Source: a virus
Taxonomy: Duplodnaviria > Heunggongvirae > Uroviricota > Caudoviricetes
Virus record (IMG/VR): IMGVR_UViG_2521172734_000004
Coordinates: 1 to 7,811 of that record
Length of the DNA: 7,811 nt
Reading direction: 5' to 3' (one strand)
Shown here: positions 5,009 to 5,826 of the stretch, piece after piece
Layout: each line of letters begins with the position of its first letter
How positions within the stretch are numbered: the first letter of the stretch is position 1
The notes under the pieces: generated by a model
The model's input: the letters and a program-made list of their open reading frames with translations, nothing else
What the model was told of the DNA's origin: nothing
Databases searched by the model: none
Made by a program: the position numbers and the translations under genes

Positions 5009-5027
5009 ATTTTATAACCCAGATACG

Positions 5028-5051
5028 GGCACCAGAAATGGTGCCTTTTTT
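5028..5051 (+). terminator. Rho-independent terminator downstream of J
   Basis: ggcacc (5028-5033) / agaaat loop / ggtgcc (5040-5045) followed by tttttt (5046-5051), 20 nt after the J stop codon. Confidence 0.7.
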
Positions 5052-5075
5052 ATTGCAGAAAAGCGAGAGGTAATT

Positions 5076-5675
5076 ATGCGTAAATTATGTGCTGTTATTC
5101 TGTCCGCAGTAGTCTGGCTGGTTGCCGCTGGTACGCCAGCGAGCGCAGCAGAGCATCAGTCCACACTAAGCGCCGGGTATCTTCAGACCCATACTGATAT
5201 GCCAGGCAGTGATGACCTGAAGGGCATTAACGTGAAATACCGTTATGAATTTACGGACACGCTGGGGCTGGTGACGTCATTCAGTTATGCCAATGCCAAA
5301 GATGAGCAAAAAACGCATTACAGCGATACCCGCTGGCATGAAGATTCCGTGCGTAACCGCTGGTTCAGCGTGATGGCGGGGCCGTCTGTACGCGTGAATG
5401 AATGGTTCAGCGCGTATTCGATGGCGGGTGTGGCTTACAGCCGTGTGTCGACTTTCTCCGGGGATTATCTCCGCGTAACTGACAACAAGGGGAAAACGCA
5501 CGATGTGCTGACCGGAAGTGATGACGGTTGCCACAGCAACACGTCTCTGGCGTGGGGGGCTGGCGTGCAGTTTAACCCGACCGAATCCGTGACCATTGAC
5601 CTTGCTTATGAAGGTTCCGGTAGTGGCGACTGGCGAACGGATGCATTTATTGTTGGTATCGGATACCGTTTCTGA
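5076..5675 (+). CDS. lom: Lom/Ail/PagC/OmpX-family outer-membrane beta-barrel protein (lysogenic-conversion moron)
   Basis: ORF 5076..5675 (199 aa) with GAGAGG 5 nt upstream of the ATG. It has an N-terminal signal peptide MRKLCAVILSAVVWLVAAGTPASA with an AxA site, alternating-hydrophobic beta-strand patterns and a C-terminal aromatic end ...FIVGIGYRF* typical of outer-membrane barrels. Position directly after J matches lambda lom. Confidence 0.92.
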   Translation: MRKLCAVILSAVVWLVAAGTPASAAEHQSTLSAGYLQTHTDMPGSDDLKGINVKYRYEFTDTLGLVTSFSYANAKDEQKTHYSDTRWHEDSVRNRWFSVMAGPSVRVNEWFSAYSMAGVAYSRVSTFSGDYLRVTDNKGKTHDVLTGSDDGCHSNTSLAWGAGVQFNPTESVTIDLAYEGSGSGDWRTDAFIVGIGYRF

Positions 5676-5779
5676 CAACAGACGCCGATTTATCTTCTGT
5701 AAATATTGTTATGATACGCAGGTTCATCCACCTTATGGGGTGAACTGCGTTTGAGGAAACGTAAAGTTACACTGTCCTG

Positions 5780-5812
5780 AAGCCCGTGGCGTCACTGCTG
5801 CGGGCTTTTTTT
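5780..5812 (+). terminator. Rho-independent terminator downstream of lom
   Basis: aagcccg (5780-5786) and cgggctt (5801-5807) flank a 14-nt loop and are followed by seven T residues (5806-5812). It ends 4 nt before the stf ribosome-binding site. Confidence 0.6.
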
Positions 5813-5826
5813 ATTGGTGGAAAAGT

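Follow-up and report, generated by a model that had tools for sequence, protein, structure and literature searches.

We found that lom in this prophage tail region is best described as a cargo gene, silent or weak in the prophage, that occupies a conserved, terminator-bracketed slot in the late operon. The explanation that we consider probable as a whole is a lambda-type J-lom-stf junction: a cargo slot bracketed by terminators, crossed late in the lytic cycle by Q-dependent read-through, with lom served in the prophage by a promoter yet to be mapped. An earlier note on this DNA had read lom as a self-contained, classic moron cassette that is insulated from late read-through. The layout behind that reading is confirmed below, and we depart from it on autonomy and insulation.

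The window (the whole stretch of DNA analysed, 7,811 nt) covers the distal tail genes of a lambda-like siphovirus prophage of E. coli, and the genes relevant here all lie on the + strand. These comprise a C40-peptidase K-like gene, an I-like gene, J (1613–5008), lom (5076–5675), an stf-like side tail fibre gene (5827–7194) and a DUF4376 gene. J, the tail tip attachment or host specificity protein, carries seven gpJ Pfam domains, matches lambda gpJ in the PDB (8iyk, E = 0) and has its receptor-binding domain in the final ~130 amino acids. The stf product begins with an N-terminal anchoring domain (phage_tail_N, 2.5e-68; lambda tail-fibre N-terminus in the PDB, 9e7m, 9e-49) and continues into collagen-like Gly-X-Y repeats (Collagen, 9.6e-19). 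With J ending at 5008, lom spanning 5076–5675 and stf starting at 5827, the gene order J-lom-stf given in the earlier note is borne out, and so is its observation of a hairpin on either side of lom.

DNA similar to the window is present in 5013 of 5426 complete E. coli genomes. The best genomic match, a prophage of E. coli 55989, is 99.5% identical across window positions 1–6923; its distal tail-fibre part diverges past about 6923. This prophage and prophage Sp9 of E. coli O157:H7 Sakai (ECs_1806-1808) share the allele family of the window, with essentially no difference in lom. Phage lambda itself (NC_001416, 18,903–19,650) has J, lom and stf (orf-401) in the same order and on the same strand, with a first hairpin and T-run some 27 nt ahead of the lom start codon and a second one just before stf; the Shine–Dalgarno and start codon context is as in the window, and the protein is of the Ail/Lom family. 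The window Lom is 43% identical to that of lambda and the J C-terminus 41%, the hairpin sequences differ, and the lom–stf spacer measures 151 nt with an extra hairpin in the window, whereas it measures 64 nt in lambda.

The two hairpins that flank lom lie where the earlier note had put terminators (5028–5051 and 5780–5812), with marginally different borders. Hairpin 1 occupies 5027–5051 on the + strand, with an eight-pair stem (5027–5046), a GAAA loop and a six-T run (5046–5051), and folds at −14.2 kcal/mol (z = −3.9), a value equalled in 1 of 200 shuffles. Between the end of its T-run and the lom ATG at 5076 are 24 nt, in keeping with the distance of about 25 nt reported earlier; this leader (5052–5075, + strand) is near-invariant among relatives and holds the Shine–Dalgarno sequence GAGAGG at 5065–5070. 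Hairpin 2 occupies 5779–5812 on the + strand, with a stem of 12–13 pairs (5779–5808) and a seven-T run (5806–5812). It folds at −20.5 kcal/mol (z = −3.3) and ends 14 nt ahead of the stf ATG. Terminator-like matches number 11 in the window (chance expectation 6.7 ± 2.7); hairpins 1 and 2 have the longest and third-longest stems among them and are the sole matches in the intergenic spacers adjoining lom. Their T-runs are found on the + strand only, making both unidirectional and facing the late operon.

Relatives of the locus provided a view of how these hairpins vary. Among 80 loci with a close relative of the stf N-domain, 75 had complete flanks, and from these both spacers were taken. The J–lom spacer came in 24 variants, of which the 17 distinct full-length ones were aligned. 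Across these 17, 98.5% of hairpin 1 cells are paired, compared with 31–68% in slid controls, and three of the eight pairs show compensatory changes (G-C/A-U, C-G/U-A and A-U/U-A), giving a covariation score reached by 0 of 500 shuffles. At this position the lambda hairpin (CGTCCGGGAACGGGCG plus a T-run) is unrelated in sequence. Such compensatory changes, together with a lambda hairpin of different sequence in the same place, argue that hairpin 1 is under selection as a structure. Variation at hairpin 2 is too low for a covariation test. Judged by fold, T-run and position, both lom-flanking hairpins appear to be genuine Rho-independent terminators and are predicted to be active as such.

A gene bracketed by two strong terminators could be an autonomous moron, with its own promoter, gene and terminator, inserted as a unit and insulated from late transcription on the way in and on the way out. 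The moron definition in PMC3594210 fits this reading, and lambda lom, which is expressed in lysogens (PMC7067206, PMC1151598), has already been classed as a moron there. This reading also gains from the state of the slot in other phages, where it is empty or otherwise filled. Serratia phage OS31 (Hendrixvirinae) has J, then 39 nt with a hairpin and T-run, then stf, leaving the slot empty. The Gifsy-1 slot (STM2589.1n) has the architecture of the window, a hairpin and T-rich run followed by a short leader, cargo, a hairpin with T-run and stf, but its cargo is an unrelated 80-aa signal-peptide ORF, not an Ail/Lom barrel. In the lytic phage JenP1, the slot is taken up by two membrane-protein genes on the minus strand. 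From these comparisons, the J–stf junction looks like a recurrent cargo slot with a hairpin-cargo-hairpin layout.

Within E. coli the picture is uniform. Every one of the 75 scorable loci has lom between J and stf, and this want of presence/absence polymorphism tells against an autonomous moron; extra DNA at the lom position is apparent at long range only, relative to OS31, with other cargo in Gifsy-1 and JenP1. The exceptions concern spacing: one locus has a 2-kb insertion in the lom–stf spacer and another an aberrant 2-nt J–lom spacer. One candidate lom-less E. coli junction (L054) was rejected: here a deletion has brought a lysozyme gene up against stf, with the join falling within the short terminator. 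Identity profiles across 69 relatives show lambdoid mosaicism, in which linkage decays gradually and no unit recombination is seen. The upstream spacer is linked to the J tail (Spearman 0.83) and to the lom 5' end (0.68), and the stretch made up of the final ~35 nt of lom with the downstream spacer and terminator is tied more closely to the stf 5' end (rho 0.69) than to the lom core (0.46). A hairpin and T-run directly before stf also occur in lambda, VT1-Sakai, Gifsy-1 and OS31, the last two without lom, and the hairpins at this site differ in sequence between the 64-nt short-spacer loci, lambda, Gifsy-1 and OS31. Because hairpin 2 is linked to the stf 5' end and has counterparts in OS31 and Gifsy-1, which lack lom, we assign it to the stf leader; the downstream terminator is a feature of that leader and not something that lom brought along. 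Hairpin 2 stands where a moron carries its own terminator, though the same site is occupied before stf in phages without lom, which weakens the case for autonomy.

The earlier note had also described lom as more AT-rich, by eye, than the tail genes around it. This is true overall, the GC content of the lom coding sequence (53.5%) being below that of J (56.3%) and stf (60.0%) taken whole, but not at the border, where the last 300 nt of J (47.7%) are more AT-rich than lom. The stf N-terminal domain stands at 54.4%, and lom falls at the 30th percentile of 600-nt segments by GC. The comparison of codon usage with J and stf that had been proposed also gave a divided answer. GC3 in lom (0.568) is lower than in all 199-codon segments of J (minimum 0.578, mean 0.681), and its codon log-likelihood (−1.671) lies just past the J minimum (−1.650), placing lom at or slightly beyond the J extreme as an autonomous moron might be; stf, however, has a GC3 that is lower still (0.51). 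The J segments nearest to lom in GC3 and codon usage are the adjacent C-terminal receptor-binding ones, and the zone of lower GC3 is broad, from about 4400 to 6200, rather than an island bounded by the hairpins. The AT-rich impression comes mostly from the spacers and the J 3' end. Any contrast in composition is small, and its limits are not those of the cassette.

An autonomous moron would also carry a promoter of its own. Scanning 4561–5075 with a sigma-70 weight matrix gave a best score of 7.54, against a mean maximum of 9.39 ± 1.85 in dinucleotide shuffles, 85% of which scored at least as well as the best site; a consensus scan found no + strand sigma-70-like site near lom. With no promoter above chance in 4561–5075, the claim of a self-contained cassette is left unproven, and the earlier remark that the position of the lom promoter is unsettled was a fair one, neither scan having given a candidate above chance. 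A PhoP-box-like reading of the spacer, suggested by eye, failed to convince and was set aside. A missing consensus promoter is negative evidence only, and a weak or activator-dependent promoter is possible.

The upstream spacer also contains a conserved motif, TTTATAACCC (5011–5020, + strand), directly past the J stop codon. It invites a reading in which hairpin 1, instead of or besides ending J, forms the start of the lom mRNA or works as an attenuator: RNA polymerase would initiate at about 5025 from the conserved TTTATAAC, and the hairpin with its U-run would act as an ompA-like 5' stabiliser or as a regulated early stop. Such a role would account for the mere 24 nt from hairpin to ATG, a spacing that is equally tight at the Gifsy-1 cargo ORF, and TTTATAACCC is retained although the J C-termini beside it fall into three unrelated allele classes (38, 57 and 98% amino acid identity). 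As a promoter, however, the motif is poor. Its −10-like TATAAC ends without the near-invariant T and is accompanied by neither a −35 nor a TG extension, and it scored too low to be among the candidates. The motif is missing in lambda, whose lom is still expressed, and most transcripts would end prematurely at a perfect terminator lying at +2 to +27. We regard this reading as very unlikely.

What is reported of lom expression in lysogens varies with the study and the phage. Lambda lom is expressed in lysogens in two reports (PMC1151598, PMC7067206) and went undetected in lysogens in one array study, which described its promoter as uncharacterised (PMC2147009). Phi24B, a short-tailed and unrelated phage, expressed lom equally in lysogens and induced cells (PMC3342100), and for this reason we suggest that lom regulation may vary between contexts. 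Expression in lysogens is thus documented for lambda. In the prophage of the window it would have to depend on a promoter that is weak, departs from the consensus or needs a factor, lying within the 67-nt J–lom spacer or a little upstream of it, or else on leakage through terminator 1. The lom promoter is a small, long-standing gap, and it could not be found from sequence here either.

The late operon of lambdoid phages is transcribed from pR' by a Q-modified, terminator-resistant polymerase. Against this background, the claim that lom is insulated from late read-through does not hold up: lom is followed on its own strand by stf and the next fibre gene, and consensus and weight-matrix scans alike found no promoter-like site above window background ahead of either. 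Given the same-strand order and the lack of a standout promoter before stf, stf would be reached only via both hairpins, and both fibre genes would depend on read-through. Strong lytic-cycle expression of Lom is, moreover, reported (PMC9836094), and its strong late rise is described in PMC12366544, citing Liu 2013; both reports sit badly with an autonomous moron, which we regard as very improbable. What survives of the classic moron is a non-structural gene in a variable J–stf slot between two hairpins; insertion as a unit is not supported, a promoter of its own is unproven and the contrast in composition is slight.

In the layout that we favour, a cargo slot bracketed by terminators within a late operon, the hairpins of the repressed prophage would stop ordinary polymerases, so that stray J-internal transcription would be kept out of lom, and such transcription as lom receives would stop short of stf. 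During late lytic growth, we infer that Q-modified polymerase from pR' passes both hairpins, in which case lom would be co-transcribed with J and stf and become abundant. The hairpins would then give lom two modes of expression instead of insulation. As the late Q-modified polymerase would ignore terminators, their effect would be confined to unmodified polymerases and hence to the prophage state.

The assignment of the protein to the Ail/Lom family was correct. Lom (8-stranded outer-membrane beta-barrel, 5076–5675) matches Pfam PF06316 (Ail_Lom) along residues 1–199, covering positions 1–199 of the 199-position profile (420 bits, E = 1.6e-126), and its PDB matches are lambda Lom (9wso_C, 1.4e-48), Ail (3qra, 3.4e-19) and OmpX (1orm/1qj8, 5.5e-19). 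The partner chains of Lom in 9wso, compared with J and stf, correspond to neither. By eye, the translation starts with a Sec signal peptide (residues 1–24, MRKLCAVILSAVVWLVAAGTPASA, followed by AEHQ…, with cleavage between …ASA and AE) and ends in …GIGYRF, an aromatic beta-signal with a terminal Phe. Across 62 distinct alleles, variation clusters in the signal peptide and in the predicted surface loops L1 and L2.

These surface loops bear on a further explanation, that lom is primarily a late gene in the service of the phage and not one of lysogenic conversion. Abundant late in infection, Lom would change the outer membrane and thereby keep sister phages from adsorbing unproductively to infected or lysing cells, and the hairpins would mainly affect the stability and processing of late mRNA, with termination as a side effect. 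Besides the concentration of Lom variation in L1 and L2, lom adjoins the receptor-binding domain of J, the JenP1 slot holds other membrane-protein genes, and OS31 keeps a J–stf hairpin with no moron to insulate. T5 llp and the cor genes of phi80 and N15 are receptor-masking or exclusion genes beside receptor-binding genes. By analogy, lom may be comparable as a membrane protein gene beside a receptor-binding tail gene, though the folds differ. Overexpressed Lom does give strong defence against lambda-vir and none against T7, from which its authors proposed late-stage kin exclusion (PMC12366544). The same study found that Lom at prophage level fails to block lambda-vir. Lom is dispensable for the formation of plaques. 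Lambda lom is non-essential by CRISPRi (PMC10695390), and its expression in lysogens is documented (PMC1151598) along with an adhesion phenotype, attachment to buccal cells, cited in PMC3594210; both lysogenic expression and adhesion count against a primarily late function. The alleles of Lom and of the J receptor-binding domain also reassort rather freely, with the 80–85% Lom class found together with all three J C-terminal classes, which is unexpected if Lom must match the receptor of J. Free reassortment in the sample makes a strict Lom–J match less likely. A primarily phage-serving late role seems unlikely to us on this evidence.

Downstream of lom, the long spacer has features beyond the terminator. 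Its extra segment (5676–5750, + strand), with a 13-bp hairpin at 5716–5750 and no T-run, is missing from lambda and VT1-Sakai, where the spacer is 64 nt long, and the fold of 5676–5818 has z = −3.1. The switch between short (64-nt) and long (151-nt) spacers starts within the last lom codons, GYKF versus GYRF. The 151-nt spacer (5676–5826) occurs in 1640 of 5426 complete E. coli genomes, with at least 99% identity in 1564 records, and is unannotated; in Sakai Sp9 it lies at 1,798,916–1,799,066. It also carries an extended −10-like TGTTATGAT. The idea of a small RNA in this spacer draws on the extra 13-bp hairpin, TGTTATGAT, the terminator and conservation at 99% or above in ~30% of complete E. 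coli genomes. Two prophage RNAs were considered as counterparts. PasB was rejected: this prophage sRNA, 'embedded in a phage structural operon' (bioRxiv 10.64898/2026.05.13.724894; PMC8550237 table S6), lies antisense to its neighbours, and its probe sequence is not in the window even when 3 mismatches are allowed. The microRNA-size 24B_1 of Phi24B, located 'between lom and vb_24B_43', comes from another spacer, 428 bp long, in a short-tailed Stx phage (PMC4426718). An Rfam scan of 4700–6100 by E-value returned no known RNA family, and no EcOnc peak for an Hfq-bound sRNA is given at the Sp9 site in Table S2 of Tree et al. 2014. That the non-coding DNA around lom does more than terminate transcription, whether through an independent or 3'-UTR-derived sRNA from the long spacer or through hairpin 1 as a 5'-UTR or attenuator controlling lom, we judge improbable.

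The definition of a moron as applied to HK97 gene 15 and lambda bor is reportedly that of Juhala et al. 2000, reviewed in PMC3594210. Like these two genes, lom is non-essential, lies in a late structural operon and is followed by a terminator, and lambda lom resembles them in being reported as expressed from the prophage. It differs from them in having no recognisable promoter of its own, a slight composition contrast and a fixed place among E. coli relatives. The arrangement is already known from phage lambda itself and occurs in E. coli prophages by the thousand, those of O157 and O104 strains among them; as a textbook lambda moron, it has little value as a discovery. For phages of this type it means that terminators flanking lom inside a Q-antiterminated late operon would provide no insulation in the lytic cycle, and that their relevance would lie in the prophage state only.

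The C-terminal receptor-binding region of J (4400-5008) forms the GC minimum of the window (44.7-47.7%), and its counterparts among relatives fall into at least three allele classes, at 98, 57 and 38% amino acid identity. All three classes meet the same lom-proximal spacer a few bases from the stop codon. Lom itself is diverse: 75 related loci encode 62 distinct proteins, whose variable sites cluster in three regions: the signal peptide, where 16 of 24 positions vary, and predicted loops L1 (amino acids 37-49, 8 of 13) and L2 (amino acids 72-93, 11 of 22). We found the lambda-type Lom allele, at about 46% identity, paired with one J C-terminal class only, whereas the other Lom alleles reassort with all three. 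Lambda Lom is chain C of a recent Protein Data Bank entry, 9wso, which the protein encoded at window positions 5076-5672 matches with E = 1.4e-48. In this entry, the partner chains of Lom are neither J nor a tail fibre.

Downstream of lom, the window carries a 151-nt 'long' spacer (5676-5826), in contrast to the 64-nt spacer of lambda and most relatives. Within it lie an extended -10-like element, TGTTATGAT (5707-5715), and an extra 13-bp hairpin that lacks a T-run (5716-5750). The long form is present in 1640 of 5426 complete E. coli genomes, with 1564 records at ≥99% identity, but in only 5 phage records, and it carries no annotation. The long spacer has no counterpart in Rfam and does not match the prophage sRNA PasB, and none of the Hfq peaks of E. 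coli O157:H7 Sakai, whose prophage Sp9 has the long form, corresponds to it. A promoter-like site at 5678-5649 on the minus strand (TTGTCA, 18 nt, AACAAT) reads into the 3' end of lom in antisense orientation; the window holds four promoter-like matches in all, a number expected by chance.

At the related locus L033, the short lom-stf spacer carries a ~2-kb insertion just upstream of the terminator (about 1476-3500), which looks like an insertion sequence. In a defective prophage, L054 (3276-3500), a deletion whose endpoint falls within the terminator hairpin has fused a lysozyme-like gene to stf and to what is left of the short terminator, its 3' half.

The window's stf-like gene contains a long block of collagen-like Gly-X-Y repeats (6560-6960), with GC reaching 72% and a strong excess of A over T. 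Its product is 455 amino acids long, compared with 688 in PhiR49_2, and homology between the window and the 55989 prophage, its closest match, ends at about 6923. Next after stf, and overlapping its 3' end, is a DUF4376 ORF.

Hairpins followed by T-runs also stand directly before stf in phages that lack lom, both in Serratia phage OS31 (L089 2958-3003) and in Gifsy-1. The T-run context observed there, TTTTTTATTGG…ATG, resembles the window's leaders for both lom and stf. In Gifsy-1, two hairpin and T-run elements (L087 2665-2690 and 2966-2990) flank an unrelated 80-amino-acid ORF with a signal peptide.
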